Shown here piece by piece: positions 1 through 22,553 of a stretch of 24,000 nt of DNA. The translations under genes were made by a program, and so were the position numbers. Within the stretch, counting starts at the first letter, position 1. The number at the start of each line of letters is the position of its first letter. This stretch comes from Exilibacterium sp. (GTDB taxonomy: Bacteria > Pseudomonadota > Gammaproteobacteria > Pseudomonadales > Cellvibrionaceae), in assembly GCA_028280195.1 (NCBI GenBank), contig JANQMH010000079.1, positions 50,452 through 74,451 on the forward strand. Direction: 5' to 3'. The notes under the pieces were generated by a model. The model saw nothing but the letters and a program-made list of their open reading frames with translations, did no database searches and was not told the origin of the DNA.

Positions 1-1747
1 CTGTCTGCGGCTCGAGTATGTCGTTGCAGCGGTCGATCTGGCGGCGAAAAACCCCGCCGCGGCGGTACAGCGCCGCCGCCATATCCAGGTGCTGCAAACC
101 AGCCTCGGGAAAAACAAAAACCACCGCCGGCGGCGTGCCCGCAGTAACCGGCGCCGACGGGATCGATTGCGGCGACGACAGTATCGCCGCCGCCTGTTGC
201 CTATCGCCGGCAACAATGGCGGCGCGGTGGCAAAAAGCCCGCCGTCCGGACTGCAGCGTATGCGCCACATCCACCAGCCGCTGCCGCGGCTGGGTACGCA
301 GATGCTCGGCGAGCTGCAGGCAGGACTGCCGCAGCGCCTTGCCGTCGCGCGCCGACAGGGGCAGGACCTGGACACCGGGCTCGCCGTTGCCGCCATCCCC
401 GTCATCGCCAGTACTCTCGCCACCGCCAATATCCGGGGCGGGCCCCTCCTCGACGATGATATGTACATTGGTCCCGCCGATACCAAAGGCACTCACGCCC
501 GCCCGCCGCGGGTGGCCGGCGCCCGGCCACGGTTTGGTTTGCGTATTGACGTAAAACGGACTGTTGGCAAAATCGATCTCGGGGTTGGGCCGCTGGAAGT
601 TGAGGCTGGCGGGCAACACCTGATGTTTCAGTGCCATCACCGTTTTGATCAACCCGGCCACGCCGGCCGCCGCATCCAGGTGGCCGATATTGGTTTTCAC
701 CGATCCCAGTGCACAGTACTGGCGGCGCTGGGTGGTCGCGCCAAATGCTTCTGTCAGGGCCGCAACCTCAATCGGGTCACCGAGCGCTGAGCCCATGCCC
801 TGCGCTTCGATATAGCCGATGGTGCCGGCATCAACGGCCGCCACCAGCTGCGCCGCGCGAATCACCCGCGCCTGGCCCGCCACACTCGGTGCGGTAAACC
901 CGACTTTATCGGTGCCGTCGTTGTTGGCAGCGCTGCCCTTGATCAGCGCGTGTACGCTGTCGCCGTCGCGCAGCGCATCGGCCAGCCGTTTCAGCACGAC
1001 AATGCCTGCACCGCTGCCGAGCGGGGTGCCGGCGGCATCGGCATCGAAGGCGCGGCAGTGCCCGTCGGCCGACAAAACCGCCCCCGGCTGGTAGCGATAG
1101 CCGCCGTTCTGCAACAGGTTCAGCGACACCCCGCCGGCCAGCGCGGTATCGCATTCATAACCGAGCAGCGCCTGGCAGGCCATATGCACCGCCATCAGTG
1201 AGGTAGAGCAGGCAGTCTGCACCGTCACCGCCGGCCCGCGCAGATTCATTTTGTAGGCGACCCGGGTACAGAGGGCGTCGGCCAGGTTGGCGCTCATCAG
1301 CCCCAGCAAATCGGCGATATTGGCGCCGTTCTCCAGGCCGTAGCGCGGCAGTACATGTCTGATCAGATACAGGTTGGCGCCGCTGCCGGCGTAGACACCG
1401 ACGCTGCCGCTGCAGTTACAGGGGTCGTAGCCGGCATGCTCCAGCGCGGTCCAGGCGCACTCGAGAAAAATCCGCTGCTGCGGGTCCAGGTGCTCGGCAT
1501 CGCGCGGCGTATAGCCGAAAAATTCGGCATCGAAGCGGTCCGCACCGTCGAACACGATGCCCGCCTTGACATAGTCGGGGTCAGCCAGCAGCTCGGCGGG
1601 CACACCGCGCTGCCGCAGCTGCTCGTCACTGAAGGCAGTGACCGACTCCACCCCGGCGCAGATATTGTGCCAGAAGGCGTCGACATCTGCGGCACCGGGA
1701 AAGCGCCCCGCCATGCCCACAATGGCAATAGCTATATCATCCGTCAT
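1..1747 (-). CDS. Type I polyketide synthase, N-terminal part: KS domain, KS-AT linker and start of an AT-like domain. The 3' end runs off the left edge.
   Basis: Absent from the ORF track because there is no stop in the window. Manual minus-strand translation from ATG at 1747 (GAGGA 7 nt upstream; an in-frame alternative ATG is at 1771) gives MTDDIAIAIVGMAGRFPGAADVDAFWHNI...DPQQRIFLECAW. It continues VTVQTACSTSLMAVHMA (active-site Cys, codon 180, nt 1208-1210), GSVKTNIGHLDAAAG (His, nt 680-682) and FGIGGTNVHIIVEE. The linker is LPLSARDGKALRQ...VDVAHTLQSGRRAF, followed by VVFVFPEAGLQHLDM at the position of the AT N-terminal motif (nt ~100-125). The frame stays open to nt 1. Confidence 0.9.
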   Translation of the reverse strand, partial: MTDDIAIAIVGMAGRFPGAADVDAFWHNICAGVESVTAFSDEQLRQRGVPAELLADPDYVKAGIVFDGADRFDAEFFGYTPRDAEHLDPQQRIFLECAWTALEHAGYDPCNCSGSVGVYAGSGANLYLIRHVLPRYGLENGANIADLLGLMSANLADALCTRVAYKMNLRGPAVTVQTACSTSLMAVHMACQALLGYECDTALAGGVSLNLLQNGGYRYQPGAVLSADGHCRAFDADAAGTPLGSGAGIVVLKRLADALRDGDSVHALIKGSAANNDGTDKVGFTAPSVAGQARVIRAAQLVAAVDAGTIGYIEAQGMGSALGDPIEVAALTEAFGATTQRRQYCALGSVKTNIGHLDAAAGVAGLIKTVMALKHQVLPASLNFQRPNPEIDFANSPFYVNTQTKPWPGAGHPRRAGVSAFGIGGTNVHIIVEEGPAPDIGGGESTGDDGDGGNGEPGVQVLPLSARDGKALRQSCLQLAEHLRTQPRQRLVDVAHTLQSGRRAFCHRAAIVAGDRQQAAAILSSPQSIPSAPVTAGTPPAVVFVFPEAGLQHLDMAAALYRRGGVFRRQIDRCNDILEPQT

Positions 1748-1963
1748 GGATTCCTCGCCATGGGTATACATCAGCCGGCTGTCTCCGTCTTCTGAGGACA
1801 ACGCTGCAACGCGGCCGGCGCCGCCAAACCCACTGGCCGGCGGCAACGGTTGCAGCGAAGACACCGCCAGACCTGGCGGCAGTGGGGCGGTGCGACAGCG
1901 GGCGCCGATTTCCGCGGTGACCGTGTGCAAGCACCGGCGCCCTGCCGGCTTCTCACACAGATG

Positions 1964-1987
1964 ACGAGCGGGATGGAAAAGAATTTA
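1964..1987 (-). promoter_or_regulatory. PvdS-type iron-starvation (IS) box promoter, TAAAT-N16-CGT, upstream of the PKS gene
   Basis: The minus strand reads TAAAT TCTTTTCCATCCCGCT CGT, with TAAAT at 1987-1983 and CGT at 1966-1964. Spacing is exactly 16. The flanks are paralogous to the box at 21982-22005: TAAATTCTT...CTCGTCAT...AGAAGCCG. The -35 TAAAT contains the TAA stop of the upstream mini-FecR ORF. It lies about 217 nt upstream of the PKS ATG. Confidence 0.55.
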
Positions 1988-2227
1988 GGGGCAAGGCCGG
2001 AAACTGCTGCCGGACGGCGGCCTGCCCTGCTCATCGCGGGTAGGTATCAGCCCGGTTATCAACCACAGGCCGCGCACCTGCCGGTATACCTGCCGGTGTG
2101 CCGGCGCTTCAGCCAGCCAGTGCTGCAGCGCCTCGCGCGCCGCACCATCGCGGGGCTCCCGATACTCTTGCAGCGTCCAATTTACGGCCCATGCCCATGC
2201 CGCATCACCGCGCTCAGTCTCTGTCAT
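1985..2227 (-). CDS. Stand-alone FecR N-terminal domain (DUF4880-like) mini-protein, copy B (80 aa from ATG 2227; the track ORF extends to a TTG at 2314)
   Basis: MTETERGDAAWAWAVNWTLQEYREPRDGAAREALQHWLAEAPAHRQVYRQVRGLWLITGLIPTRDEQGRPPSGSSFRPCP. It has the A-x2-W...WL-x5-H-R-Q-x-Y...W pattern of the cytoplasmic sigma-binding domain of FecR/FpvR. There is no TM segment. It is a paralogue of 22176-22403, with about 42 of 73 aligned residues identical by eye. The start is uncertain because WPDSE upstream of the ATG is also conserved in frame in both copies. Confidence 0.6.
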   Translation of the reverse strand: MTETERGDAAWAWAVNWTLQEYREPRDGAAREALQHWLAEAPAHRQVYRQVRGLWLITGLIPTRDEQGRPPSGSSFRPCP

Positions 2228-2604
2228 TGCACGCTCACTATCCGGCCAATCAGACTTCCTAGTAGACGATTGACACCAGTATCTGTTAAGCCTGGCGCCG
2301 GCGTGATCTGACAAACCGCTGCGCCTATCGGCGCAGGTGTCCGGCAGTATTCGAAGCAGTAGACAATGCCCGGCTTTGGTCGGCGCTCAGCACCTGCCTG
2401 CCCGTGTCTGTTTTAGCGCCGCCCGGATATGGAAATGTTGAAAAATAACATTGCTATTTTTTCCGCTTCATTCGTTATTGGACATAGCAGGGCCGAAAAC
2501 GGGCAGCTGAGACGGCAGCAAGCCATTGATGCCGCAGTATGTCAGCTGTGCATAGGCATATGGGCATGTGGGTAACAGTTATTGGCGTTTTAGGCTGAAA
2601 TCAT

Positions 2605-2669
2605 AGTTGGTGGAAAAACAGTTGGTGGAAGAGCAGTTGCGAGTAGTACGGAATCAAGTAGTGCGGAAT
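2605..2669 (+). repeat. 15-bp-period tandem repeat tract directly upstream of the DUF3649-like/PepSY/TonB operon
   Basis: AGTTGGTGGAAaaac (2605), AGTTGGTGGAAgagc (2620) and AGTTGcGaGtAgtac (2635). These are followed by AGTAGTACGGAAT (2642-2654) and AGTAGTGCGGAAT (2657-2669), again 15 bp apart. The tract ends 8 nt before the ATG at 2678. Confidence 0.7.
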
Positions 2670-2677
2670 ATTAACTG

Positions 2678-2956
2678 ATGGGACTCAGCGGATGGCGATT
2701 GTGTTCGGTGGCGTTGGCAGCACTGTTAGCAGGTTACTGCCTGGCAACAGCCGCCGGTGTATTCATTGGCAGCCTCTTACCGGTGCCCCGGGGTGAGGCG
2801 GTGTTAATCGGCATGCTCTGCAGTTTTGTGGTCTATGCAGGTGCGGTAATCTGGGCATTTGCGGTGCGCCGCCCCGCGCAGGTCTGGTTGGGCCTGATGA
2901 TACCCGCCTGCGCGCTGGCGGCAGCGGGCGCTGTTCTCGCTGGTTCCCCGCTATAA
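2678..2956 (+). CDS. Small inner-membrane protein, DUF3649-like (commonly found upstream of PepSY-TM iron-uptake proteins)
   Basis: 92 aa with three hydrophobic segments: RLCSVALAALLAGYCLATAAGVFIGSLLPVPRGEAVLIGMLCSFVVYAGAVIWAFAVRRPAQVWLGL. This matches my recollection of the DUF3649 pattern and of its conserved position before a PepSY-TM gene. The Shine-Dalgarno is weak, so the exact start is uncertain. Confidence 0.55.
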   Translation: MGLSGWRLCSVALAALLAGYCLATAAGVFIGSLLPVPRGEAVLIGMLCSFVVYAGAVIWAFAVRRPAQVWLGLMIPACALAAAGAVLAGSPL

Positions 2957-2985
2957 TCAGGTTCCCCGCCACAATCAATAGACCG

Positions 2986-4611
2986 GTGCAGAAGATTACT
3001 CGAGAAGACCCCAGCGAGGGCGGCTTTCGCCAGGCCATGGCCTGGTTGCACACCTGGTCGGGATTGATTCTCGGCTGGCTGTTATTCTTTATTTTCCTCA
3101 CCGGTACGGCGGGCTATTTCGATACCGAAATCGATCGCTGGATGCAGCCGGAGCTGCCCCGGGCACAGCCCCGCGCGGACACCGCCGCCACTGCCGCCGT
3201 GCTGCTGCAGCGCCTGCGCAGCGAGGCACCGGCGGCTGAGCGCTGGTTGCTGCTACTGCCGGTTGACCGCAACCAGCCCTACCCCGGTATCGCCTGGCGC
3301 GGCGCCGCTGCGGCTACCGGCGCCAGTGCCGCCAGCGGCAGTGCGAGGGTGGACGGCAGCAGCGGCAAAACACTGGCGGCACGGGATACCGGGGGCGGAC
3401 AGGCGCTCTACCGGATGCACTGGCGGCTGCACTATCTCTCCCGCGCCCAGGCGGATGTGATCGTCGGCGTCGCCACACTGTTTATGCTGGTGGCGCTGAT
3501 CACCGGCGTCATTATCCACAAGAAGATCTTTAAGGATTTCTTCACTTTCAGGCCCGGCAAGGGGCAGCGCTCCTGGCTGGATGCACACAATGTGCTGGGT
3601 GTGGCGGCCCTGCCCTTTCATCTGATGATCACCTATTCGGGCCTGGTTTTTATGGCCTTTTCCTATATGCCTTTAATCCTGACGGCTCACTACGGTGCCG
3701 GTGGCAGCGCGCAACAGCAGTTCAGAGCCGAAGTCTCCGATCCTCCCGGGCTTGTCGAAGCAGCGGGTGAACCGGCTGCCCTGGTAGCGCTGGGCGGCCT
3801 GATCGCGAAGGCGGAAGACCGCTGGGGACAGGGCCGGATTCGCAGTATCGATATCCGCCACCCGCAGCACAGCAACGCCCGCGTGATCTTCCATGAAAAT
3901 ATTGAAAAAGCGGCGGGCAATGCCGGCGAACGGCTGGTTTTCGATGGCGTTGACGGCACCCTGCTGCACACCCTGGCGCCGGCCACCTCCGCCGCACAGG
4001 GGTTCCGGGGCCTGCTTATCGGACTCCACGAAGGGCTGTTTGCGCCGCCGCTGCTGCGCTGGCTTTACTTCTGCTCGGGGCTGCTGGGCACCGGCATGAT
4101 CGCCACCGGTCTGGTATTGTGGACGGCCAAACGCCGGCGCCAGGCAGTGCGCGCCGCCGCTGCCACGCCGGCCGGCCTGCTGCTGGTGGAGAAGCTCAAT
4201 GTGGGTACGGTGGTGGGGCTGCCGCTGGGGATTGCCGCCTACTTTTGGGCCAACCGTTTGCTGGCCGTGGATATCGCCGGCCGCGCCGACTGGGAGATCC
4301 ACATCATGTTTCTCACCTGGTTGGCCATGCTGATCCACGCCGCTGTGCGACCGGCGCAGCGCGCCTGGGGGGAACAACTGCTGCTGGCCGCGTTCGCTTT
4401 CGGCGCGCTGCCCCTGCTCAACGCCATCACCACCGAGCGCCACTTAGGCCACAGCCTGGCTGCCGGCGACTGGGTGTTTGCGGGCTTTGACCTGAGCGTC
4501 CTGGCCATTGGCCTGGTATCGGGCTGGGCCGCCCGGCGGCTCTGGAAGCGGCCGCGCCAGGCGGCTTATCTGCCAGTGGCGCCGGCAGCACTGGACGGAA
4601 CCGGTTCGTGA
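2986..4611 (+). CDS. PepSY-associated TM-helix protein (PiuB/FoxB/FpvG-like putative inner-membrane ferric-siderophore reductase)
   Basis: 541 aa with a GTG start. The N-terminus GGFRQAMAWLHTWSGLILGWLLFFIFLTGTAGYFDTEIDRWM is the hallmark of this family. Other matches are YRMHWRLHY, HNVLGVAALPFHLMITYSGLVF, LHEGLFAPPLLRWLYFCSGLLGTGMIATGLVLW and several more TM helices. Confidence 0.85.
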   Translation: MQKITREDPSEGGFRQAMAWLHTWSGLILGWLLFFIFLTGTAGYFDTEIDRWMQPELPRAQPRADTAATAAVLLQRLRSEAPAAERWLLLLPVDRNQPYPGIAWRGAAAATGASAASGSARVDGSSGKTLAARDTGGGQALYRMHWRLHYLSRAQADVIVGVATLFMLVALITGVIIHKKIFKDFFTFRPGKGQRSWLDAHNVLGVAALPFHLMITYSGLVFMAFSYMPLILTAHYGAGGSAQQQFRAEVSDPPGLVEAAGEPAALVALGGLIAKAEDRWGQGRIRSIDIRHPQHSNARVIFHENIEKAAGNAGERLVFDGVDGTLLHTLAPATSAAQGFRGLLIGLHEGLFAPPLLRWLYFCSGLLGTGMIATGLVLWTAKRRRQAVRAAAATPAGLLLVEKLNVGTVVGLPLGIAAYFWANRLLAVDIAGRADWEIHIMFLTWLAMLIHAAVRPAQRAWGEQLLLAAFAFGALPLLNAITTERHLGHSLAAGDWVFAGFDLSVLAIGLVSGWAARRLWKRPRQAAYLPVAPAALDGTGS

Positions 4612-5519
4612 AAGATAATCTCGCGCGCCGGCCGCAGCTCGCCACCACCGGCAACAAGGGGCAAACGCGTTGCGGCCCGGCGTTGATCCTGCCCGGGGGG
4701 CGGGAAACACCGCCGGTGGACAGGTCAGCGCGCTTGCCGGCCGGCAAAACCACATCCCGCTGGCTGTCAGCTCTGCTGATCGCCGTACTGGTCCACAGCG
4801 CGCCGCTGGTCTGGTGGCTGCTGCCCGACAATGAGCCCGCCGCAGCCGGCACACTGCCCCCGGCCGCGATGGTGATCGAGCTGGCACCTGCAGCGGTGGC
4901 GCCGGCATCCCGGGCGGATAGGCCACCCGGCCCCGAGCGGGCCGCTGCCAGCGCCCGCCCCGAAGTACAGCGCGTTGCCGCGCCGCAGGCGGATATGCCA
5001 CCGGCTCCACCCGCCAGCAAACCCGAGGTGGCCGTCAATACGGAACCCAAAGCGGAACCCGAGCAACAACCGCGGCCGCTGCCGCCGCCCCTGTTGGAGC
5101 AAGCGCAAGACATACCACCGCGGCAACAGCCGCCCGGCCCCGCCAGCGCAGCAGCGGATGCGCCCCGGCAAGACGAACAGGCGGCGGCCCCCAAGCGGGG
5201 GGCAGCAGTACCCGCCGTTGACGCCAGCGTACTGCCCGACTGGCAAAGTGCGCTGATGTTCAAACTCAATGAGGCCAAGCGCTACCCGTCCCGCGCCCGC
5301 CGCTACCGCCAGCAAGGTGTCGCCTATCTGCGCTTTACCATGGATCGGCAGGGCAATGTGCTGGCGAAAAGCATCGAGCAAAGCTCGGGACACCGACTGC
5401 TGGATAAGGAGACACTGGCGCTGCTCGACCGGGTCCAGCCCCTGCCCGAGCCGCCGGCGGCGCTGGCGGGCAGGACACTGGAGTTTGTCATACCGGTGGA
5501 ATTCTTTTTAAGGCGTTGA
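4608..5519 (+). CDS. tonB: TonB-family energy transducer
   Basis: The GTG start overlaps the PepSY stop (GTGA), suggesting translational coupling. It has one TM helix (WLSALLIAVLVHSAPLVWWLL) and a long Pro/Ala/Glu-rich spacer (PPAPPASKPE...EPEQQPRPLPPP). The C-terminal TonB domain reads YPSRARRYRQQGVAYLRFTMDRQGNVLAKSIEQSSGHRLLDKETLALLDRVQPLPEPP. About 50 aa precede the TM, so an in-frame GTG at 4716 is a plausible alternative start. Confidence 0.8.
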   Translation: MKDNLARRPQLATTGNKGQTRCGPALILPGGRETPPVDRSARLPAGKTTSRWLSALLIAVLVHSAPLVWWLLPDNEPAAAGTLPPAAMVIELAPAAVAPASRADRPPGPERAAASARPEVQRVAAPQADMPPAPPASKPEVAVNTEPKAEPEQQPRPLPPPLLEQAQDIPPRQQPPGPASAAADAPRQDEQAAAPKRGAAVPAVDASVLPDWQSALMFKLNEAKRYPSRARRYRQQGVAYLRFTMDRQGNVLAKSIEQSSGHRLLDKETLALLDRVQPLPEPPAALAGRTLEFVIPVEFFLRR

Positions 5520-5534
5520 GTGATTGCAGTGTCT

Positions 5535-6044
5535 TCAGCCGGCTGGCTGCGGGTAACTGCGCTTTATTTCTCTAATATACTTGGCTGCGGAGCGATAATG
5601 GCTGGCACCGGAGGCCTCGATCCAGCGCCCCAATGGCCATTTACCCTGCCACTCGAACTTGATCGGGCCGTACAGGGCCTTATTGTTGTGCTCGGCCATA
5701 AAGTCCATCAGGCGTTTATGCGCCGCGGCAAGCCGGGACTTCGCCGTGGACCAGGCCATCCTCGCGTTCTTTTCCCGTACCCTGGCATTGTACTCTTTCA
5801 ATTGATTCCATTTATATCCTTTGGCGGGTACGTATACGGGCTTGCCGGCGACACCGTCCTCATACCAGTTAAAAAACAGATCGATCCAGTGGATGCGGTG
5901 GGCCAGCGTGTCTTTAATGGTGATACCGTCGTCCGGATGCGGTGCCACAGCCAGTTTTTTATCGACGCCGTCCAGTACCTTCTGCAGTTTTTCGAACTCT
6001 TTTTCAGTAATTGCGATCAGATCGGCTCTTGTCGCGGCTGCCAT
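5535..6044 (-). CDS. ClbS/DfsB-family (DUF1706) four-helix-bundle protein, last gene of the RND operon
   Basis: I place the start at ATG 6044, with GGAGGAGA 7-14 nt upstream. The track ORF starting at 6122 would overlap the RND gene. Sequence: MAAATRADLIAITEKEFEKLQKVLDGV...TIKDTLAHRIHWIDLFFNWYEDG...GYKWNQLKEYNARV...ALYGPIKFEWQGKWPLGRWIEASGASHYRSAAKYIREIKR. This matches the ClbS/DUF1706 pattern as I remember it: W-x-L-x2-W, F/YKWN-x-L, LYG, W-x2-GR-x-I...S-x-Y...IRK. Confidence 0.8.
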   Translation of the reverse strand: MAAATRADLIAITEKEFEKLQKVLDGVDKKLAVAPHPDDGITIKDTLAHRIHWIDLFFNWYEDGVAGKPVYVPAKGYKWNQLKEYNARVREKNARMAWSTAKSRLAAAHKRLMDFMAEHNNKALYGPIKFEWQGKWPLGRWIEASGASHYRSAAKYIREIKRSYPQPAG

Positions 6045-6060
6045 GGGTGTTCTCCTCCGA

Positions 6061-9000
6061 TTACGTCTGTTTGCTCTGCAAGCTGCCGGCGGCAGCGGCG
6101 GCGGGTTGCCCTTTATCGGCAAGCAGTTGGTCCAGTTCGCGGCTTACGTCGCCCACCGAGCCGGTGCCGCGGGCAATCAGATGGTAAAACACCGGCACGA
6201 CAAACAGCGTAAACAAGGTCGCCGAGGCCACCCCCGCCAGCACTACCACGCCGATGACCGTGCGCGTCTCGGCGCCGGCACCACTGGTGAGAATCAACGG
6301 CAGCGAACCGGCGGCGGTGGTGATGCCGGTCATGATAATCGGCCGCAGGCGCACTTGCGCCGCCTGCAGCAGTGCCTGGGAAAACGCCATGCCCTGATCG
6401 CGTAGCTGATTGACGAACTCGACAATCAGAATGCCGTTTTTCGCCGCCAGCCCCACCAGCATGATCAGGCCGATCTGCGAGTACAGATTCAGCGACCCGC
6501 CGGTAACATACAGTGCGGCGAGCCCGCCGCCGATGGCCAGCGGTACACTGGTCATAATCACAAAGGGATGCAGCCAGCTTTCGAACTGCGCCGCCAGCGC
6601 CAGATAGGTCACGAAGATGCCGAGCAGAAATACCCAGATAATCGATTGACCGGCGTATTTGAAATCCTGTGACTGGTCCTTGTAATCAATGATGACATCG
6701 CTGGGCAGGTGTTCGCGCACCAGGTTTTCGAGATGCTCCAGCGCCTCGCCCAGGGTATAACCCTCGGCCAGATTGGCTTCCAGTGTAATGGCGCGGATGC
6801 GGTTGTAGCGGTTGAGTTCATTGCTGCTGGCAAACTCCTCGACCCGCACCAGATTTGACAGCGGGATCAGCTGATCGCTTCTGTCCGAGCGCACATAGAT
6901 ATTTTCCAGGTTGGAAATGGTGCGCTGCTGATCGCGCTCGCCCTCGAGCATGACATCGTATTCCTCACCCTCATCGATATAGGTGGTCACTCGCCGCGAG
7001 CCGAGCATGGTCTCCAGGGTGCGGCCGATATCGCCGATGGTGACGCCGATTTCGGCGGCGCGGTCGTAGTCGATGGCCACCTCGAGTTGCGGTTTGGTTT
7101 CCTTGAAGTCCCAGTCGAGGCCGACGAAACCGGGATTGTCCGCGTCGATTTTATCCACCAGAATATCGCGCCACTCGGCCAGCTGTTCGTAAGTGCCGCC
7201 GCCGATGACAAAGCTGACCGGCTTTGCAGCCGCCGAGCCGAAACCCTGGCGCATGATCGGGAAGGCGCGCACACCCGGCAGATCGGCCAGCTTGTTGCGC
7301 ACTTCATCGACAATGGTAAAAGCATCGCGGCGCTCGTCCCAGTGCTCGAGTACGGAAATCACAATACCGGTGTTATAGTTCTCGGTGCGACCGAAGGCGC
7401 GCGGCGCCCTGATCAGCAGGCGGGTAATCTCGCCGCTTTCTACATAGGACATCAGCCGCCGCTCAATTTCATCCATATACTCTTTCATATAGCTGTAGGT
7501 GGCGCCCTCGGGCCCGTTGACGATAATGAAGAACGCGCCGCGGTCCTCCTTCGGCGCATATTCCTGGGGCAGCTGCTGAAAGACCCAGACCAGCACGGCG
7601 ACCAGCGCGGCAAAGGCCAGCAGCACCACTGAGGCATACTTTATACAGCGGCTCAGTGCGGCAACGTAGGCGCGCTGGCAGACTTTTACCGCGGCGTCGA
7701 TGCGCCTGACGATAACATTGCCCTGGGTTGAGGGCTTGAGGATTTTGGAGGCCAGCATCGCCGACAGCGTCAGGGCGACAAAAGAGGAGAACATCACCGC
7801 CGCCGACATGGTCAGGGCAAATTCGCTGAACAGCCGCCCCACATCGCCGCGCTGAAAGGCGATCGGTGTAAACACCGCCACCAGCACCAGGGTCGTGGCC
7901 ACCACCGCGAAGGCCACCTGGCGGGCGCCGCGAAACGCCGCCAGCAGCGGCGGCTCTTTGTACTCGTCGATGCGGCGCTTGATATTTTCCAGCACCACGA
8001 TCGAATCGTCGACGATCAGACCGATGGCCAGCACCATCGCCAGCAGGGTCAGCAGGTTGACGGAAAAGCCCATGGCATACAGCGCAATGGAGGTGGCGAT
8101 CACCGAGACCGGCACCGTCACCGCCGGCACCAGCATGGCCCTGACACTGCCGAGAAAGGCGTAAATCACCAGAATCACCAGGCAAATGGCGATCGCCAGG
8201 GTGCGATAGACCTCGCCGATGGCGCCCTCGATAAATACCGAGGTGTCGTAACTCTGCTCGAGAAGCATGTGCGCGGGCAGGTTTTCATTGATCTGGTTTC
8301 TGACATTTCTGGCTTCGCGCGCGACATCGATAATATTGGCGGTGGACTGCTTGATAATGCCGATGCCCACCTGCGGAATGGCATTGCCGCGGAAAAAGTT
8401 GCGCGCCTCTTCGGTGCCCTTTTCCACCCGCGCCACATCCCCGAGCCGCACCAGGTAATTGCCGGCGCCGGCATCGCCCCGGGAGATCACCAGGTTGGCA
8501 AAATCATCCGCGGAGCGGAATGCGCGCTTGGTGCGCACGGTAAACTGCCGCTCGTCGCTTTCGATACTGCCCGCCGGCAGTTCCACGTTCTCGGCGCGCA
8601 GTGCATCCTCGACATCGTTGACGGTCAGGTCCCGCGCCGCCAGTGCCCTGCGGTCCAGCCAGATGCGCATGGCAAAGCGCTGGCGGCCGCCGATACGCAC
8701 CCGCGAGACACCGTCGATCACGGAAAAGCGATCGACCAGGTAGCGCTCGGCGTAGTCGGTCAACTCCAGCACCGTCATACCATCGCCGGTCAGGTTGAAC
8801 CAGACGATGACATCGTCGTTGCTGTCCTCTTTCTGTATTTCCGGCGGGTCTGCCTCCACCGGCAGATTGTCCAGTACGCCGCTGACCCGGTCGCGGATAT
8901 CGTTGGCGGCGGCGTCGACATCGCGGCCGATATCGAACTCGACGGTGATGCGGCTGCGGCCGTCGCGCGATGAGGACTCGATAAAACGGATACCCTCGAC

Positions 9001-9219
9001 ACCGGCGATGCGCTCTTCCATGATCTCGGTAATACGCGACTCCACCACATTGGCGGCGGCCCCGGGGTAATTGGTTTCGACGCTGACAATCGGCGGGTCG
9101 ATATTGGGATACTGTCGCAGCGGCAGGCGGTCAAAGGCCAGCAGACCGAAGATGATCAACAGAACGGAAATAACCGCGGCAAATACCGGCCGTCGGATCG
9201 ACACATCGGAAAGTACCAC
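6061..9219 (-). CDS. RND (AcrB/HAE1-type) efflux transporter permease
   Basis: 1052 aa, GTG start with a G-rich SD. N-terminus: SIRRPVFAAVISVLLIIFGLLAFDRLPLRQYPNIDPPIVSVETNYPGAAANVVESRITEIMEE. It has the 12-TM, two-large-loop architecture, including VDDSIVVLENI and GLAAKNGILIVEF. There are 15 nt after the adaptor gene stop and 16 nt before the ClbS-like start. Confidence 0.95.
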   Translation of the reverse strand: MVLSDVSIRRPVFAAVISVLLIIFGLLAFDRLPLRQYPNIDPPIVSVETNYPGAAANVVESRITEIMEERIAGVEGIRFIESSSRDGRSRITVEFDIGRDVDAAANDIRDRVSGVLDNLPVEADPPEIQKEDSNDDVIVWFNLTGDGMTVLELTDYAERYLVDRFSVIDGVSRVRIGGRQRFAMRIWLDRRALAARDLTVNDVEDALRAENVELPAGSIESDERQFTVRTKRAFRSADDFANLVISRGDAGAGNYLVRLGDVARVEKGTEEARNFFRGNAIPQVGIGIIKQSTANIIDVAREARNVRNQINENLPAHMLLEQSYDTSVFIEGAIGEVYRTLAIAICLVILVIYAFLGSVRAMLVPAVTVPVSVIATSIALYAMGFSVNLLTLLAMVLAIGLIVDDSIVVLENIKRRIDEYKEPPLLAAFRGARQVAFAVVATTLVLVAVFTPIAFQRGDVGRLFSEFALTMSAAVMFSSFVALTLSAMLASKILKPSTQGNVIVRRIDAAVKVCQRAYVAALSRCIKYASVVLLAFAALVAVLVWVFQQLPQEYAPKEDRGAFFIIVNGPEGATYSYMKEYMDEIERRLMSYVESGEITRLLIRAPRAFGRTENYNTGIVISVLEHWDERRDAFTIVDEVRNKLADLPGVRAFPIMRQGFGSAAAKPVSFVIGGGTYEQLAEWRDILVDKIDADNPGFVGLDWDFKETKPQLEVAIDYDRAAEIGVTIGDIGRTLETMLGSRRVTTYIDEGEEYDVMLEGERDQQRTISNLENIYVRSDRSDQLIPLSNLVRVEEFASSNELNRYNRIRAITLEANLAEGYTLGEALEHLENLVREHLPSDVIIDYKDQSQDFKYAGQSIIWVFLLGIFVTYLALAAQFESWLHPFVIMTSVPLAIGGGLAALYVTGGSLNLYSQIGLIMLVGLAAKNGILIVEFVNQLRDQGMAFSQALLQAAQVRLRPIIMTGITTAAGSLPLILTSGAGAETRTVIGVVVLAGVASATLFTLFVVPVFYHLIARGTGSVGDVSRELDQLLADKGQPAAAAAGSLQSKQT

Positions 9220-9234
9220 ACTGCCCCCCGGCTG

Positions 9235-10347
9235 TTAGAGATTGGCTGATTTGAGGTTCGGGCCGACCGCGGCCGCCTCGCCACTGTCGGCGGGCAGCAG
9301 CACCTGGCCGCCGGATTTCACTTTGAAGGCGCCGTGGGTGATGACCTGCTCGCCGACCTCCAGCCCCTGGCTGATTTCAACCTCGCCGCGCCGCCGGCCG
9401 GCAACGGTGACCCGGCGCTTCTCCGCGATCACCTGATCCTGTTGCGGGTTCACCACCATCACGTAGTTGTCGCGCCCCTCGGGCAGCAGCGACTCCTCGG
9501 ATATCACCAGGGCCTGGCGCTCATTCATAAACAGAGAGATCTGCATCAACATGCCCTGCTTCAGCAGCTGCTCGTCGTTGGGCAGGATGGCGCGCACATT
9601 AATGGCGCGGGTGACGCGATCGACCTGGTTGTCGATACTCAGCACCTGGCCGCGAAACTCCCGCTCGCGGTAAGCGCGGGTGGTGGCCACAATCGGCAAT
9701 GCGGTCTGCAGAGAGGGAAGGAATACCGCCGGCACGGTAAAGTCCAGCTTCATACGCGTGTCGTCGGTGAGGGTGGTGATGAGATCGCCGGGGCGCACCA
9801 GTGCGCCGAGGCTGATATTGCGCAGCCCCACCTGGCCGGCGAAGGGCGCCTTGACAACCCGGTCTCTGAGCCGCGACTGCATGGCGATCAACCGCGCCTG
9901 CGCCGCATCGTAGTCGCGCTGGCGCTCGTCCAGCACCGATTCGGAGGCATTGCCCACCCGCACCAGCCTGGCAATGCGGTCGAGTTGGCGCTTGGCCTCG
10001 CGAGCGTTGGTCTGTGCCTCCACCAGCAGCGCCTTTTCCTCAGCGCTGGTCATTTCCACCAGCACCTGGTCCGCCGCCACCCGCTGGCCGTCCTCAAAGT
10101 GAATGGCGGTGATGGTCTCGGTGACATTGACCGTCAACTCCACCGATTCATTGGCCCGCAGCGTGCCCAGCGCCTCGGTCTGATCACGAAAAGTATCCTC
10201 GCGCACGGTTTCCACCTTGACCGCTACCGGTGCGCCCGGCTGGGCCGCACTCAAACCGGCGCCGGCCGCCAGTACGGCCGCCAGGCAACAGGGATTCAAA
10301 GCAAGCGTTTTTACCAAGGTATAGCAATAGCGGAGTGGCTTTATCAT
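9235..10347 (-). CDS. RND periplasmic adaptor (membrane fusion protein, HlyD/AcrA family)
   Basis: 370 aa with an N-terminal signal/anchor. A coiled-coil hairpin region (EAKRQLDRIARL...YDAAQARLIAMQSRL) is flanked by beta-rich lipoyl/barrel segments (VKAPFAGQVGLRNISLGALVRPGDLITTL). It sits immediately upstream of the RND permease. Confidence 0.9.
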   Translation of the reverse strand: MIKPLRYCYTLVKTLALNPCCLAAVLAAGAGLSAAQPGAPVAVKVETVREDTFRDQTEALGTLRANESVELTVNVTETITAIHFEDGQRVAADQVLVEMTSAEEKALLVEAQTNAREAKRQLDRIARLVRVGNASESVLDERQRDYDAAQARLIAMQSRLRDRVVKAPFAGQVGLRNISLGALVRPGDLITTLTDDTRMKLDFTVPAVFLPSLQTALPIVATTRAYREREFRGQVLSIDNQVDRVTRAINVRAILPNDEQLLKQGMLMQISLFMNERQALVISEESLLPEGRDNYVMVVNPQQDQVIAEKRRVTVAGRRRGEVEISQGLEVGEQVITHGAFKVKSGGQVLLPADSGEAAAVGPNLKSANL

Positions 10348-10515
10348 GCAGCAGTGGCCATTAAAGAAAGTGAGGGATTATCGTCTGTGCACCGGTGTTC
10401 AAAGTAGCGGATATGCGTATGAGGCGAGTTGGTCGAGAAAGTTCATCCGCTGTCGGCGCAAGTGCTGGCATGCTAGCAGACTCCGTATGCCGGCGCCAGT
10501 CGCCGCCGGGCCAAT

Positions 10516-10539
10516 ACGAATACATTTTATTTAGATTTA
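10516..10539 (-). promoter_or_regulatory. Candidate third IS-box-like element (TAAAT-N16-CGT) upstream of the RND adaptor/pump/ClbS-like operon
   Basis: The minus strand reads TAAAT CTAAATAAAATGTATT CGT, in the 249-nt gap between the TetR stop (10597) and the adaptor start (10347). Orientation is correct and spacing is exactly 16. It lacks the extended flank similarity shared by the other two boxes and sits in an AT-rich patch, so a chance match is possible. Confidence 0.3.
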
Positions 10540-10596
10540 TCAAACGGTTAAGACGCCTACTTAGAGCCTGACGCCACTTTCTGAAGCCGCCGGCCG

Positions 10597-11247
10597 TCAG
10601 TCTGGCAAGGCCCGCTGAATGCCGTCCAGCAGGGTTTCCACCATCAGCGTATAAACCCGCCCGGGCTGTTGCCGGGCAAAGACAGGTTGCAGCCGGGTGG
10701 TGACGGGAAACTGCTCCGGCGGCAGCTCCGCCACCTCCCGCAGGAACGCCGCCGGCGCCGGCTGCAGCAGGCCGCCGATCTCGGCGGCGGCCATGCCGAG
10801 CAGGCTCGCATACCAGCCAAAGCACATATCCACCACCTGCCGGTCGTCGAGACCGGCATCGCTGAGCGCCTGATAAATCGCCTCGGCCTGGCGGTAATCG
10901 GCCGGGCCCGTGACCCAGAAGTGCAGCAGCAGCGGAAAGGTATGCGGATACTGCAGCGCCAGATTGCGGTACTGATGGGCCAGATCGCGCAGCCTCTCGC
11001 GCCAGTGGGCGCCGCCATCGACCGGTTGCAGCAGCCCGTTCAGCGTATCGGCCATGGCCCGCTCCAGGCCGGCTTTGGATTGGAAATGGTAGAGCACTGC
11101 CATCGGGTCACAGCCCATTCTGGTAGCCAGCTTGCGGACACTGAAACCGGCCTCGCCGACGGCCTCCCGCAGTTGCACCGCGGCGGCGACAATTTCCTCC
11201 GGCGCCAGGCCTTTAGGGCCGGTGCGCAGGGCTTTTTTCGACACCAT
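10597..11247 (-). CDS. TetR/AcrR-family transcriptional regulator
   Basis: Start placed at ATG 11247 (AAGGAAAA upstream); the track ORF from 11307 would read through the operator region. The HTH is EEIVAAAVQLREAVGEAGFSVRKLATRMGCDPMAVLYHFQSKAGLERAM, followed by an all-helical ligand domain. It is divergent from the MFS gene and upstream of the RND operon. Confidence 0.85.
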   Translation of the reverse strand: MVSKKALRTGPKGLAPEEIVAAAVQLREAVGEAGFSVRKLATRMGCDPMAVLYHFQSKAGLERAMADTLNGLLQPVDGGAHWRERLRDLAHQYRNLALQYPHTFPLLLHFWVTGPADYRQAEAIYQALSDAGLDDRQVVDMCFGWYASLLGMAAAEIGGLLQPAPAAFLREVAELPPEQFPVTTRLQPVFARQQPGRVYTLMVETLLDGIQRALPD

Positions 11248-11325
11248 AGAAATTTTCCTTGCAATTTCTTTGCTGTAGAGATTAATATTCTGCGCCGTAG
11301 AAATCAATTTCTTCGCTGTAGAAAT
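11244..11325. promoter_or_regulatory. Phased operator-like repeats in the TetR/MFS divergent promoter region
   Basis: GCTGTAGAGAT (11272), GCCGTAGAAAT (11294) and GCTGTAGAAAT (11315) are spaced 22 and 21 bp apart. There are also dyads AGAAATT-N8-AATTTCT (11249-11270) and AGAAAT-CA-ATTTCT (11299-11312). Confidence 0.5.
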
Positions 11326-11363
11326 CCGTATCTGATTAACCGTGTTTTAAACAGGAGGCTGTA

Positions 11364-12587
11364 ATGACACAGCTCGGCACTCACACGCACGCGATGACAG
11401 CCCGCCAGCGCGGCTGGAGCCTGGCCGCAGTGATCGTTTCCACGGTAGGCCTCGGCCTGTCCTACGGTATCGGTTATCCGCTGACGGCACTGAAGTTTGA
11501 GCAGTGGGGCGCGCCCGGCTGGCTGATCGGCATCGCCGGCGGTATGCCGGCGCTGGCGGTATTCCTGCTGCTGCCGGTGCTGCCCCGGGTAATCGGCCGC
11601 ATCGGTGCGGTGCAGTCAATGCTTATCGGCTGCGCGCTGACCGGCCTGGGCTTTGGCCTGATGGGGCTGTTGCAGACCGTCGAGGCCTGGATTCTGTTGC
11701 GCTTTCTGGTCGGCGCCGGCATGACTTTTCCCTGGCTGGTGGGTGAAACCTGGATCAATACCGTGACCGGCGACAGTACCCGCGGCCGGGTCATGGCGCT
11801 GTACGTGATGGGGCTGTTTAGCGGCTATGCGGTGGGGCCCCTGGTGCTCAACGCCGTCGGTACCGACGGCACCCTGCCCTACGCCATCGGCATGGCCGCC
11901 ATGGTGGCCACCGCGGCGCCGTTACTGGCAGCCTGGAAACTGGCGCCGGCGCTGGAGGCACACCCGCAAAGCGGGCTCTGGGGTGCGGTGAAGCTGGCGC
12001 CCATCGCCATGGTCGGCGCCTTTGCCGGCGGGGTTACCGAGCTGGGTTATTTTTCCCTGCTGCCGGTTTATTCGCTGGCGGTCGGTTTGAGCAGCGCCGA
12101 GGGTCTGTTTTTACTCAGCACCCTGATGGTCGGCGGTATCGTGCTGCAGTTTGGCGTCGGCTGGCTCTGCGACCGCCTGTCGCGGGACACAGTGATGATC
12201 GCCATGGGCTTGGCGGCGGCGGCGCTGGCGCTGGCGGCGGCGCTGGTCGCCGATCAGCAGCTGCCGCGCATCGTGCTGACGTTTCTGCTCGGCGGTGCAG
12301 TGCTCGGCTTTTATTCGGTTGGTCTGATTGTACTGGGAACCCGGGTGCCGACTGCCGAGCTGGCGGTGGCCAACGCCGCCTTTCTAATGATCTACCAGGC
12401 CGGTTCCATCGTCGGTCCCGGCGTTGCCGGAGCGGCAATGGATATCTGGCGGCCGCACGGCTTTATCGCGGTTATGGCCGCCTTTGCTGTGGCCGCCTCG
12501 CTGTTGACTTGGTGGCTGGCGCGGCGGCGGCGCGATGCTCCCGTATCCGTGCAATGCCTCGGGCGCGGTGACGGCGTCCGGCCTTGA
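11364..12587 (+). CDS. MFS transporter (12-TM), substrate unknown
   Basis: 407 aa, with AGGAGG 7 nt upstream of the ATG. Hydrophobicity is continuous 12-helix-like. An MFS loop 2-3-like motif (GRIGAVQSM) is present. It is divergent from the TetR gene. Confidence 0.85.
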   Translation: MTQLGTHTHAMTARQRGWSLAAVIVSTVGLGLSYGIGYPLTALKFEQWGAPGWLIGIAGGMPALAVFLLLPVLPRVIGRIGAVQSMLIGCALTGLGFGLMGLLQTVEAWILLRFLVGAGMTFPWLVGETWINTVTGDSTRGRVMALYVMGLFSGYAVGPLVLNAVGTDGTLPYAIGMAAMVATAAPLLAAWKLAPALEAHPQSGLWGAVKLAPIAMVGAFAGGVTELGYFSLLPVYSLAVGLSSAEGLFLLSTLMVGGIVLQFGVGWLCDRLSRDTVMIAMGLAAAALALAAALVADQQLPRIVLTFLLGGAVLGFYSVGLIVLGTRVPTAELAVANAAFLMIYQAGSIVGPGVAGAAMDIWRPHGFIAVMAAFAVAASLLTWWLARRRRDAPVSVQCLGRGDGVRP

Positions 12588-12616
12588 GCAGCCTGTCGAT
12601 TTCCAGCGTGTATATC

Positions 12617-12643
12617 GGAAAGGTGGATCGATACGACCTTTCC
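12617..12643 (+). terminator. Weak candidate stem-loop after the MFS gene
   Basis: GGAAAGGT (12617-12624), an 11-nt loop, then ACCTTTCC (12636-12643), 30 nt after the MFS stop. No U-tract follows, so this is not a classical intrinsic terminator. Confidence 0.25.
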
Positions 12644-12720
12644 ATCCATAGGCCAATATTTCTGCAACCGCCGCAGCTAAAGATCGACGATATAATTATG
12701 GTTATAGCTAAGTAAATATT

Positions 12721-12820
12721 CTTGACATCAATATAAATTGATGCGTGAATATAAATTCATGGCGGGCCGGGATAATCAATCTTCATGTTATTACTTGATA
12801 TCAATATTCTATATACCAAT
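12721..12820 (+). promoter_or_regulatory. AT-rich control region upstream of the S9 peptidase gene, with dyads and promoter-like hexamers
   Basis: CTTGACATCAATAT (12721-12734) is repeated as CTTGATATCAATAT (12794-12807). Perfect dyads are CATCAAT-ATAA-ATTGATG (12726-12743), TGAAT-ATAA-ATTCA (12746-12759) and TTGATATCAA (12795-12804). TTGACA and TTGATA are -35-like, but I could not pair either with a convincing -10. Confidence 0.35.
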
Positions 12821-13037
12821 ACAGTAAGGTCACTTGCATCTGTCGCCCCGCAGAAACTGCAGACAGCTCACTGAGTTAAACAGCCCCGGCGAGCCGCTTG
12901 TTTCAGCTTGCTGCTGTCGCCCGAGTGCAAACTGTTATCCAGCAAACGGCTGGAGCCTGTTGACCCGTATCCCGCCCCGGCAAGTGCTCTAGTGTCACAA
13001 GTGGGGTGCGGTAGATTTTGCTTATTGAGGAACCAGC

Positions 13038-15206: not shown

Positions 15207-15219
15207 GCGGTAACGGGCC

Positions 15220-20517: not shown

Positions 20518-21548
20518 CCATCCTCACCCGCAAAGCCGCTGAAATTATCGTGGGGCCCGGCCATGGCAACCACCACTTTGCGCTCACCGGTAAAAGGCGT
20601 GCGCCCGTGAGCCACCAGCATATTGTCCAGCATCAGCACATCGCCCGCCCGCCAGGGGAAGGTAACCGTCTGTTGCGCCAGCACACAGCGGATGTCTTCG
20701 AACACACTGTCGGCAATGGCGCTGCCGTCGGCGTAGTAAACATTGCGGGGAACATTTTCAATACCGAGCAGTTCCTCCAGCATCTCCCGCACCTCCGTTT
20801 GCTGACTGGAAATATGGAAAAGGTGAGCCTGATTGAACCACACGGCCTCGCCGCTCGACGGGTGGCATTCGATTCCCTGGCACAGCTGCCGGGTGCGTAA
20901 ACCACCGTCGGTTTTCCATTGCCACTGGATACCGGTTCTGCGGCAATAAGCCTCCACTTCCGTCCTCGAGTCGGTGTTGAACACCTGCTGCCAGGGCACA
21001 TCGAAATCACCATAGTTGCGCACATAGAGCAGGCCGCGGCGAAAGCGTTCGCGAATGGCTGCCGGTATCTGCCGGTAGACAGCGCGACTGTCGGCAATCG
21101 GCGTTTCGCCGCCCGTTGCCGCCGGTCTCACACAGTGAAACCAGAGTTTCATCGCCCACTCCCGCGTATAGGCCTGCTCGTTATGCAGCGGGATATGCTG
21201 GTGGGCAGGGTATTCAGTAGAGGTATAAACACCGCCTGATACGCGGGTACGCGGAGTGGAACCAAAGTCATAGTTGAGCAGGGGGTGTCCGAAAGCAGCG
21301 GCAAAATTCTGGAAGTCTGTGACGGATGGCACAGCGAAGCCCCTGAGCAATGCCGCGCCCACACTGGCGATCGCCTTTTCGATATGCGGCTGCAGAGCGG
21401 CGAAAGCAGCGCTCAGAGGTTGACCTGCCTCTGAGGGTGTAATCAGCACCGGCAACTCAGATCCCGGCGGCGCGACAAGTCTGTAGTCGCCGCCCTGCGG
21501 TCGCAATGCCGGCTCGGGGACAGGCACATCCTGGGTTGTACTCATCAT
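20514..21548 (-). CDS. TauD/TfdA-family Fe(II)/2-oxoglutarate dioxygenase, SyrP-like (putative hydroxylase of a carrier-protein-bound amino acid)
   Basis: Start placed at ATGATG 21548/21545, just downstream of GGGGGAGAGAG; the track ORF from 21593 adds 15 aa. Sequence: GAALLRGFAV..VTDFQNFAAAFGHPLLNYDFGSTPRTRVSGGVYTSTEYPAHQHIPLHNEQAY (H-x-E facial-triad position)...GGETPIADSRAVY...DNMLVAHGRTPFTGERKVVVAMA (distal His and Arg). The stop overlaps the NRPS start. Confidence 0.85.
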   Translation of the reverse strand: MMSTTQDVPVPEPALRPQGGDYRLVAPPGSELPVLITPSEAGQPLSAAFAALQPHIEKAIASVGAALLRGFAVPSVTDFQNFAAAFGHPLLNYDFGSTPRTRVSGGVYTSTEYPAHQHIPLHNEQAYTREWAMKLWFHCVRPAATGGETPIADSRAVYRQIPAAIRERFRRGLLYVRNYGDFDVPWQQVFNTDSRTEVEAYCRRTGIQWQWKTDGGLRTRQLCQGIECHPSSGEAVWFNQAHLFHISSQQTEVREMLEELLGIENVPRNVYYADGSAIADSVFEDIRCVLAQQTVTFPWRAGDVLMLDNMLVAHGRTPFTGERKVVVAMAGPHDNFSGFAGEDG

Positions 21549-21634
21549 CTCTCTCCCCCTTGCCCGGAGATCGCGGCGCACCGGCTCTTGCACAGGGCAG
21601 GCAAAGCAGTTTTCTGGTAAAGACGACTGCGAGC

Positions 21635-21981: not shown

Positions 21982-22005
21982 ACGAACGAGGCTGCGAAGA
22001 ATTTA
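21982..22005 (-). promoter_or_regulatory. PvdS-type iron-starvation (IS) box promoter, TAAAT-N16-CGT, upstream of the mbtH-hydroxylase-NRPS operon
   Basis: The minus strand reads TAAAT TCTTCGCAGCCTCGTT CGT, with TAAAT at 22005-22001 and CGT at 21984-21982. It lies about 66 nt upstream of the mbtH ATG. The flanks are paralogous to the box at 1964-1987. Confidence 0.55.
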
Positions 22006-22403: not shown

Positions 22404-22553
22404 CACACACTCACTGTCCGGCCACACAGGCTTTCACAATAGCCGATCCAGAACCACCCGTCTTTCCTTTAGGTCGACCTGATCCATGCAATGTGCGATA
22501 TCATAGCAATAGTAAGGCTAAAGCGCAGCTATGGCGTTATCGCGGCGCTTAAA

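Follow-up and report, generated by a model that had tools for sequence, protein, structure and literature searches.

A histidine-type DUF1706 protein encoded behind an RND efflux pump in an Exilibacterium siderophore-type cluster

We analysed a 24,000-nucleotide (nt) stretch of DNA from Exilibacterium sp. (contig JANQMH010000079.1 of assembly GCA_028280195.1; hereafter the window), and in particular a minus-strand gene at positions 5535..6044 that encodes a 169-residue protein of the DUF1706 family (the query). A member of this family is ClbS, the colibactin self-resistance cyclopropane hydrolase of the E. coli pks island (PDB 6ANR, 7MTL), which also binds DNA (7MTL). The gene lies last in a resistance-nodulation-division (RND) efflux operon that is flanked by non-ribosomal peptide synthetase (NRPS) and polyketide synthase (PKS) genes. 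An earlier note on this DNA had read the arrangement as ClbS-like self-protection of the producer, implying a reactive or genotoxic product. We consider it fairly probable that the protein is instead a cytoplasmic, possibly metal-dependent, DinB-like enzyme of a histidine-type (His-type) DUF1706 clade, encoded as an addition to a housekeeping efflux operon. The fold itself is known; what is new here is the variant of its active site, and the position in the operon is without precedent.

In the explanation that we propose, the protein has the ClbS/DfsB four-helix bundle, with the catalytic Tyr and the family Pro replaced by a strictly conserved His49...His149 pair. Together with R50, E143, R151, S152 and the near-invariant H52, this pair would form a DinB-like metal or acid-base centre, and such a centre would entail chemistry unlike the Tyr-dependent cyclopropane hydrolysis of ClbS. 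The substrate is probably a small molecule, by analogy with the thiol transferases, isomerases and hydrolases of the DinB superfamily. In this lineage the gene appears to have been appended as the last cistron of an operon encoding a TetR-family regulator, a membrane-fusion protein (MFP) and the RND permease, and it would be expressed together with the pump. Its most economical role would be that of an enzymatic partner, modifying or inactivating a compound that the pump handles. We infer that the gene is no marker of a genotoxic NRPS/PKS product.

Fold and active-site residues of the DUF1706 protein

The protein matches the Pfam DUF1706 profile (PF08020) with an E-value of 7.1e-43 and 146.9 bits against a cutoff of 24.2, over profile positions 4-166 of 166, and is a member of this family; NCBIfam holds no model for it. 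The motifs from which the earlier note had recognized the ClbS/DfsB pattern, HRIHWIDLFFNW, GYKWNQL, ALYG and GRWIEASGASHYRSAAKYIREIKR, are all present in the minus-strand translation of 5535-6044, and that assignment is confirmed by the predicted fold. An AlphaFold2 model built on 111 sequences reached a predicted local distance difference test (pLDDT) score of 95.2, and its comparison by Foldseek gave template-modelling (TM) scores of 0.84-0.90 to ClbS, DfsB, IRC4 and 5COF and a probability of 1.00 to 6ANR, 5CIV, 5COG and 5COF, placing the protein among the ClbS/DfsB-type bundles. The same proteins were returned when the Protein Data Bank (PDB) was searched with the query sequence: ClbS (6ANR, E 4e-14), DfsB, 5COF and IRC4. 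The solved DUF1706 structures DfsB, IRC4, 5COF and 4N6C reportedly stem from the work of Taylor et al. in 2016. The likeness to ClbS goes beyond the family and the four-helix bundle (TM 0.88, root-mean-square deviation 2.2 Å), as both proteins are of similar length, cytoplasmic and encoded in an NRPS/PKS region, and both carry W53, W60, the GYKWN motif, W136 and G139-R140 (query numbering). The query is, however, only 23% identical to ClbS.

The two proteins also differ in their active-site residues. Tyr55 of ClbS is needed for its hydrolase activity and for protection (bioRxiv 10.1101/431098). Pairwise and profile alignments, both fixed by the invariant Trp that follows position 49 at a distance of four residues, bring the ClbS segment VSY55LIGW into register with LAH49RIHW of the query, so that Tyr55 corresponds to His49. 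Three further exchanges are found: Gly58 of ClbS is His52 in the query, the Gln of its QFNTAS segment is Glu143 and the Pro of its SPY segment is His149. All five solved DUF1706 structures that we inspected (ClbS, DfsB, 5COF, IRC4 and 4N6C) have Tyr and Pro at query positions 49 and 149, respectively. DfsB, IRC4, 5COF and 4N6C share the fold (TM 0.84-0.90) and the family hidden Markov model with the query but are of the Tyr/Pro type, where the query is His/His. None of the five is His-type at 49/149, and therefore no inspected structure can stand for the clade of the query.

Sequence comparison assigns the query to a large His-type clade, separate from the Tyr-type clade of ClbS and DfsB. The position of Tyr55 is occupied by His in the query and in all 120 of its closest relatives, and the conservation of the ClbS catalytic residue, which the earlier note had wished to see checked, is thus lacking throughout this group. 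Across the 120 closest homologues H49, R50, E143, H149, R151 and S152 never vary, and 119 of them keep H52. Relatives at 33% identity, from Acidimicrobiia and candidate phyla radiation (CPR) bacteria, retain H49, R50, H149, R151 and S152, and have Glu instead of H52. An exhaustive HMMER scan of 1.84 billion representatives yielded 422 relatives, and in the 98 aligned representatives that could be scored at both positions 49 and 149 the states were H/H in 70, V/Q in 8 and Y/P in 4. Such joint switching of positions 49 and 149 among discrete states is the behaviour expected of the two halves of a single site. The clade comprises at least 70 clusters at 50% identity, distributed over Alpha- and Gammaproteobacteria, Actinobacteria and CPR bacteria.

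The V/Q state, defined by Val49, Trp52 and Gln149 and made up of about 8 clusters at 50% identity, is a third state besides Tyr/Pro and His/His. The DUF1706 family has at least these three active-site types, and those studied so far are Tyr/Pro only. Among relatives of the His type we also observed fusions of the DUF1706 domain to an isochorismatase-family hydrolase (P0425) and to DUF3788 (P0489), as well as tandem duplicates of about 330-350 residues (P0378, P0384 and P0400); these fused and tandem forms might hint at the substrate class.

The query is related to the DinB/YfiT superfamily by sequence and by fold. It scores 25.3 bits against Pfam DinB_2, and the Pfam cross-matches among 64 His-type members comprise DinB_2 (47), MDMPI_N (27), MST (7) and DinB (5). 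A broad His-type profile matches YfiT (1RXQ) with an E-value of 1.6e-4; a narrow-clade profile search of the PDB returned DUF1706 structures only. In the Foldseek comparison the next tier, at TM about 0.6, consists of the metal-dependent DinB enzymes mycothiol S-transferase (MST, 8F5V), YfiT (1RXQ) and mycothiol-dependent maleylpyruvate isomerase (MDMPI, 2NSF). These proteins, and likewise BstA (5WK0), have the superfamily bundle in common with the query at this TM level but are only 9-16% identical to it in sequence.

The AlphaFold2 model places H49 and H52 in the first part of helix 2 (residues 43-65) and E143 and H149 on either side of the point where the last helix begins (138-145 and 147-163). 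We take the ligands of DinB enzymes to be located on the same two helices, those of YfiT being H67, H160 and H164; coordinate arithmetic on the broad His-type profile would tentatively put query position 49 at YfiT residue 68-69. The zinc ligands of MDMPI are His52, Glu144 and His148 (PMC4351081), and the modelled placement of the His and Glu residues of the query appears strikingly similar to them in position, although the spacing is E144-x3-H148 in MDMPI as against E143-x5-H149 in the query. ClbS and DfsB are reportedly without the metal-binding motif of the superfamily (PMC10693628). The His-type clade would thus appear to carry a putative metal or acid-base centre. This type is widespread in marine bacteria, and establishing its metal content and substrate would bridge the ClbS-like proteins and the DinB thiol transferases and hydrolases.

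Two alternatives that assign the protein to defence or attack are best weighed at this point. It might be an orphan immunity gene against the genotoxin or other toxin of neighbouring bacteria, comparable with the orphan clbS-like genes of non-producers and simply parked behind the pump. Such orphan genes are widespread and protective (PMC8907063) and the His-type clade is found as stand-alone genes in many marine bacteria; the equivalent of Tyr55 is missing, however, and we regard this explanation as very improbable. Alternatively, the protein could be a toxin precursor similar to DfsB, from which cleavage would free a cationic antibacterial C-terminal helix. The sequence has no signal peptide, RND pumps do not export folded proteins, and the strict His/Arg/Glu constellation is better suited to an enzyme site than to a peptide precursor, so that even with a fold in common with DfsB (TM 0.89) and a basic C-terminal helix (AAKYIREIKRS) this second alternative is barely credible.

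The efflux operon and its DUF1706 cistron

On the minus strand, the DUF1706 gene starts with an ATG at 6042-6044 and ends with a stop codon at 5535-5537; read on the plus strand, 5535-6044 gives a meaningless translation, and this reading was discarded. A direct read of the minus-strand junction with the RND permease gene gives TAA-T-CGGAGGAGAACACCC-ATG, which places the RND stop at 6061-6063 and the DUF1706 ATG at 6044, with a gap of 16 nt (6045..6060, minus strand). The gap holds a strong Shine-Dalgarno sequence, GGAGGAGA, and no promoter-like site was found within it. Both the spacing and the ribosome-binding site are as the earlier note had described them, and the co-transcription with the pump that it had postulated is the natural reading of such a junction. 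A longer version of the gene, beginning at a TTG at 6122 (195 residues), was rejected: it overlaps the 3' end of the RND gene and is without a Shine-Dalgarno sequence, and homologues begin at the residue equivalent to the ATG.

The order of RND gene, 16-nt gap, DUF1706 gene and convergent TonB gene recurs on identical or 98%-identical contigs of five other metagenome assemblies, and is therefore the same in six assemblies. The window and its 98%-identical relative differ by just 6 nt, which is too few to inform a selection analysis.

The permease is an AcrB-type (HAE1) protein of 1052 residues, encoded at 6061..9219 on the minus strand (ACR_tran, E 5e-287); against NCBIfam RND_permease_2 it scores 1076 bits, under the cutoff of 1250. 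The adjacent gene on the same strand, at 9235..10347, encodes the periplasmic adaptor (MFP, 370 residues; HlyD_D23, TIGR01730), and this MFP-RND pair constitutes an RND efflux operon. A gene for a TetR-family regulator (10597..11307, minus strand; TetR_N, TetR_C_1) precedes the pump genes and is oriented like them; its start is uncertain, and the gene caller gives 216 residues. No outer-membrane factor gene was found in the window or beside the orthologous pumps. Pumps that borrow a TolC-like channel are commonly without an outer-membrane factor gene of their own. Searched against plasmids, the pump region returned short RND matches only.

The permease is 84% identical to its counterpart in Exilibacterium tricleocarpae and 77% to that in Agarilytica rhodophyticola, the corresponding values for the MFP being 84% and 71%. 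From the permease identities we take the organism to be a Cellvibrionaceae-like gammaproteobacterium. Four orthologous MFP-RND pairs were compared (Exilibacterium, Agarilytica and two contigs from metagenomes or metagenome-assembled genomes; RND 77-84% identical), and in none was there a DUF1706 gene or a nearby NRPS/PKS; OsmC, a 98-residue open reading frame (ORF), an alpha/beta hydrolase or, further on, an S9 peptidase are found downstream of these pumps. The DUF1706 homologues were sampled at 43 reference-genome loci, mostly from marine Alphaproteobacteria with a few from Gammaproteobacteria, Acidimicrobiia and CPR bacteria, and not one has an RND, MFP, NRPS or other window gene within 10 kb. 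Their neighbours are heterogeneous, with 110 Pfam families in 103 flanking genes and none recurring more than 4 times. The best homologues of the DUF1706 gene are alphaproteobacterial and 66% identical, as against the 84% identity of the pump to that of a Cellvibrionaceae genome.

The RND-DUF1706 arrangement was seen only on the identical or 98%-identical metagenome contigs, and a scan of metagenome contigs for close relatives returned none. The earlier note had suggested looking for this operon in other genomes, and neither the homologue loci nor the orthologous pumps contain it. From these comparisons we consider it most likely that the DUF1706 gene was added, in this lineage only, to a pump that is otherwise a conserved housekeeping system of Cellvibrionaceae-like marine Gammaproteobacteria. 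Its G+C content is 54.5%, and its G+C content at third codon positions (GC3) is 0.66, compared with 0.78-0.81 for the pump genes. The window as a whole is a compositional mosaic, in which the genes for MbtH, the extracytoplasmic function (ECF) sigma factor, FecR and TauD have GC3 values of 0.61-0.67, near that of the DUF1706 gene.

The siderophore-type cluster and its promoters

That the pump block is set within an NRPS/PKS region, as the earlier note had stated, is correct: it is flanked by an NRPS (15220-20517) and a PKS. The region contains an ECF sigma factor, FecR, DUF4880, MbtH, TauD, NRPS, PKS, PepSY_TM and TonB, and so has the gene set of a siderophore cluster. Orthologues of the NRPS that are 54-68% identical, with the same size and domain order, are present in Variovorax, Azotobacter, Cupriavidus, Duganella, Janthinobacterium, Microbulbifer and Halomonas/Vreelandella. 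Members of these genera make lipopeptide siderophores primed by a fatty acyl-AMP ligase (FAAL), among them variochelin, taiwachelin and serobactin (PMC11837247). FAAL-type NRPS orthologues combined with an iron-starvation sigma/anti-sigma system, TonB, PepSY_TM, MbtH and TauD are the signature of an acyl-peptide siderophore and not that of a genotoxin cluster, and an acyl-peptide siderophore is most likely the product, as far as gene content can tell.

Clusters of the variochelin, cupriachelin, serobactin and taiwachelin type have the order ECF sigma, DUF4880, MbtH, (TauD), FAAL-type NRPS and PKS/NRPS in common with the window, as well as the 54-68% identical NRPS and a promoter box; they differ in that about 13 kb separates the NRPS from the PKS in the window. 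This interval (1772-15219) contains the S9 peptidase, the major facilitator superfamily (MFS) transporter, TetR-MFP-RND-DUF1706, TonB, PepSY_TM and a 92-residue ORF.

Three orthologous clusters were compared, from a metagenome contig, Variovorax boronicumulans and Microbulbifer taiwanensis. The cluster on the metagenome contig is 75% identical in the ECF sigma factor, 78% in TauD, 67% in the NRPS and 52% in the PKS. Orthologous clusters run from ECF sigma through DUF4880, MbtH, thioesterase, (phosphopantetheinyl transferase) and (TauD) to the NRPS, which the next megasynthase follows directly, and the pump and the DUF1706 gene are absent from all three. The thioesterase and phosphopantetheinyl transferase genes that lie between MbtH and NRPS in the orthologues are missing from the corresponding stretch of the window. 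Pump and DUF1706 gene together are, at this locus, most likely a lineage-specific and probably recent insertion in a siderophore cluster.

These results bear directly on the proposal of ClbS-like self-resistance, according to which the protein would hydrolyse or sequester a reactive, possibly DNA-damaging NRPS/PKS product or intermediate alongside efflux. The residue on which ClbS activity depends, Y55 (bioRxiv 10.1101/431098), is His across the clade, members of which occur in unrelated contexts without a biosynthetic cluster, so that the fold and Pfam family common to both proteins, and the protection against colibactin afforded by diverse ClbS-like proteins (PMC8907063), have to be set against a different active site. 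Likewise, although the gene is co-transcribed with a pump sited between NRPS and PKS, it is absent from the three orthologous clusters, which the earlier note had itself named as a result that would speak against its proposal. The hallmarks of the cluster (ECF sigma, FecR, TonB, PepSY_TM, TauD, MbtH and a FAAL-type NRPS) are those of a siderophore, and the pump operon is without the promoter box of the cluster described below. The contrast with ClbS extends to gene context, as the query gene is not conserved with its cluster and is coupled to an RND pump, whereas ClbS reportedly works alongside the MATE transporter ClbM (PMC9854587). We therefore regard self-resistance of the ClbS kind, and with it the suggestion of a reactive or genotoxic product, as improbable; the fallback offered by the same note, that DUF1706 has a role unrelated to ClbS here, is the reading that the evidence favours. 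For genome mining guided by resistance genes this calls for caution, since a ClbS/DfsB annotation beside an NRPS/PKS is by itself no flag for a genotoxin.

Promoter boxes of the cluster were identified upstream of the MbtH gene (TAAATTCTTCGCAGCCTCGTTCGT, 21982..22005, minus strand) and of the PKS (TAAATTCTTTTCCATCCCGCTCGT, 1964-1987, minus strand). Both conform to an extended box, TAAATTCT-N12-TCGT, that also precedes MbtH in two of the orthologous clusters (L052 1470-1493 and L054 8129-8152). The box fits TAAAT-N16-CGT, which we take to be the consensus of PvdS-type iron-starvation sigma factors, and it is probably the target of the cluster's own ECF (PvdS/FecI-like) sigma factor. The separation of PKS and NRPS in this window apparently explains why the PKS carries a copy of its own.

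The minimal pattern TAAAT-N16-CGT is matched a third time at 10516..10539 (minus strand), 170 nt upstream of the MFP gene. This third match does not fit the extended cluster box within 3 mismatches, and we estimate the probability of such a minimal match arising by chance at roughly 0.05-0.15. As the match fails the extended box, the pump operon is at most possibly co-regulated with the cluster. About 40 nt downstream of it, in the TetR-MFP intergenic region, there is an imperfect palindrome found by repeat search, TGCTAGCATGCCAGCA (10463..10478), which is a candidate TetR operator. A search with the Fur-box consensus gave no match within 3 mismatches.

The location of the operon, embedded in the cluster beside uptake genes, raises the alternative of an accessory function in the siderophore pathway. 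Under iron starvation the pump would then export or recycle the lipopeptide siderophore, and the DUF1706 protein would act in the cytoplasm on the siderophore, a mis-processed intermediate or the iron complex, for example through hydrolysis or in the handling of metal. Siderophore export by RND pumps is known, with AcrB/AcrD/MdtABC for enterobactin and VexGH for vibriobactin. Iron could be bound by the conserved His and Glu residues, and one relative is fused to an isochorismatase-family domain. The PvdS-type match upstream of the MFP gene would also be in keeping with this function, but it misfits the extended box of the two true cluster promoters and of the orthologues. Moreover, the orthologous clusters do without the pump and the gene, the orthologous pumps sit outside any cluster, and the homologue loci have no link to siderophore genes. 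We consider an accessory function rather unlikely.

Several points weigh against the reading that we prefer, that of a DinB-like enzyme of the His-type clade added to a housekeeping pump. The DinB_2 score of the query barely exceeds the cutoff (25.3 versus 24.8 bits), the metal site itself is one that we infer, and 25 of the 70 His-type representatives have Ala or Gly at position 52, which means that a three-ligand site is not universal in the clade. Given that ClbS-like proteins down to 27% identity to ClbS protect against colibactin (PMC8907063), low identity alone leaves a related activity possible. The placement of the pump block between NRPS and PKS, together with the minimal TAAAT-N16-CGT match, makes a functional tie to the siderophore possible. 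Finally, since the MbtH, ECF sigma and FecR genes are equally low in GC3, the GC3 of the DUF1706 gene is weak evidence of recent acquisition.

A bolder form of the preferred reading can be offered tentatively. The His-type clade may represent an unrecognised enzyme family in which a DinB-like metal centre (His49, His149, His/Glu/Asp at 52 and Glu143) has been kept or regained, with chemistry unlike that of ClbS, and which is here wired to an RND pump as a modify-then-export module serving either the embedded siderophore pathway or xenobiotic defence.

Other genes of the window

Read from right to left, the genes of the window are FecR, ECF sigma, the DUF4880 ORF, MbtH, TauD, NRPS, S9 and MFS (both on the plus strand), TetR, MFP, RND, DUF1706, TonB, PepSY_TM and the 92-residue ORF (these three again on the plus strand), and PKS. 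Pfam matches identify the FecR-like protein, whose frame is open at the right end of the window (23359 to beyond 23946, minus strand), the ECF sigma factor (22554-23135, minus strand) and, between the latter and MbtH, an 83-residue ORF consisting of DUF4880 only (22176-22427, minus strand). A stand-alone ORF of this kind (74-83 residues) lies between ECF sigma and MbtH in all three orthologous clusters as well (L052 1069-1311, L053 8563-8811 and L054 7690-7914). We take DUF4880 to be the N-terminal, anti-sigma domain of FecR, and the ORF looks like a mini anti-sigma factor without a periplasmic sensor domain.

The minus strand continues with the MbtH-like gene (21635-21916), a TauD-type hydroxylase (20514-21593) and the NRPS, which has the domain order acyl-AMP-ligase-type adenylation (A), thiolation (T), condensation (C), A and T (15220-20517), all by Pfam. 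Between the NRPS and the pump regulator are two plus-strand genes, an S9-family serine peptidase (13038-15206; Peptidase_S9, DPPIV_N, PD40) and an MFS transporter (11364-12587; MFS_1).

The hybrid PKS, in which Pfam finds ketosynthase, acyltransferase, phosphopantetheine-binding (PP) and C domains, runs off the left end of the window on the minus strand (2..1987 including its promoter box). Its start lies near 1771 and is uncertain, the candidates being 1864 (GTG), 1771 and 1747 (both ATG). In L051, the 148-kb scaffold of a marine (TARA) metagenome from which the window comes, the PKS has 1808 residues. Between L051 and the window there is an offset of 18 nt between PepSY_TM and the 92-residue ORF (window 2956-2986), and the called PKS start is out of frame; this suggests small indels between the assemblies or a mapping error.

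A siderophore-uptake operon on the plus strand (2678..5519) runs convergent to the DUF1706 gene. It encodes a 92-residue hydrophobic membrane protein without a Pfam match (2678-2956) and, directly downstream, PepSY_TM (2986-4611), a putative ferric-siderophore reductase, followed by TonB (4608-5519), the last two assigned by Pfam. The cluster of Microbulbifer taiwanensis adjoins the same set of 92-residue ORF, PepSY_TM and, further along, TonB, the identities being 64% for PepSY and 73% for the C-terminus of TonB. The 92-residue protein is clearly homologous to the ORF in the same position there (L054 4502-4780; MGLSGWRL... versus MELTGWRL...), and is a conserved unannotated partner of PepSY_TM.

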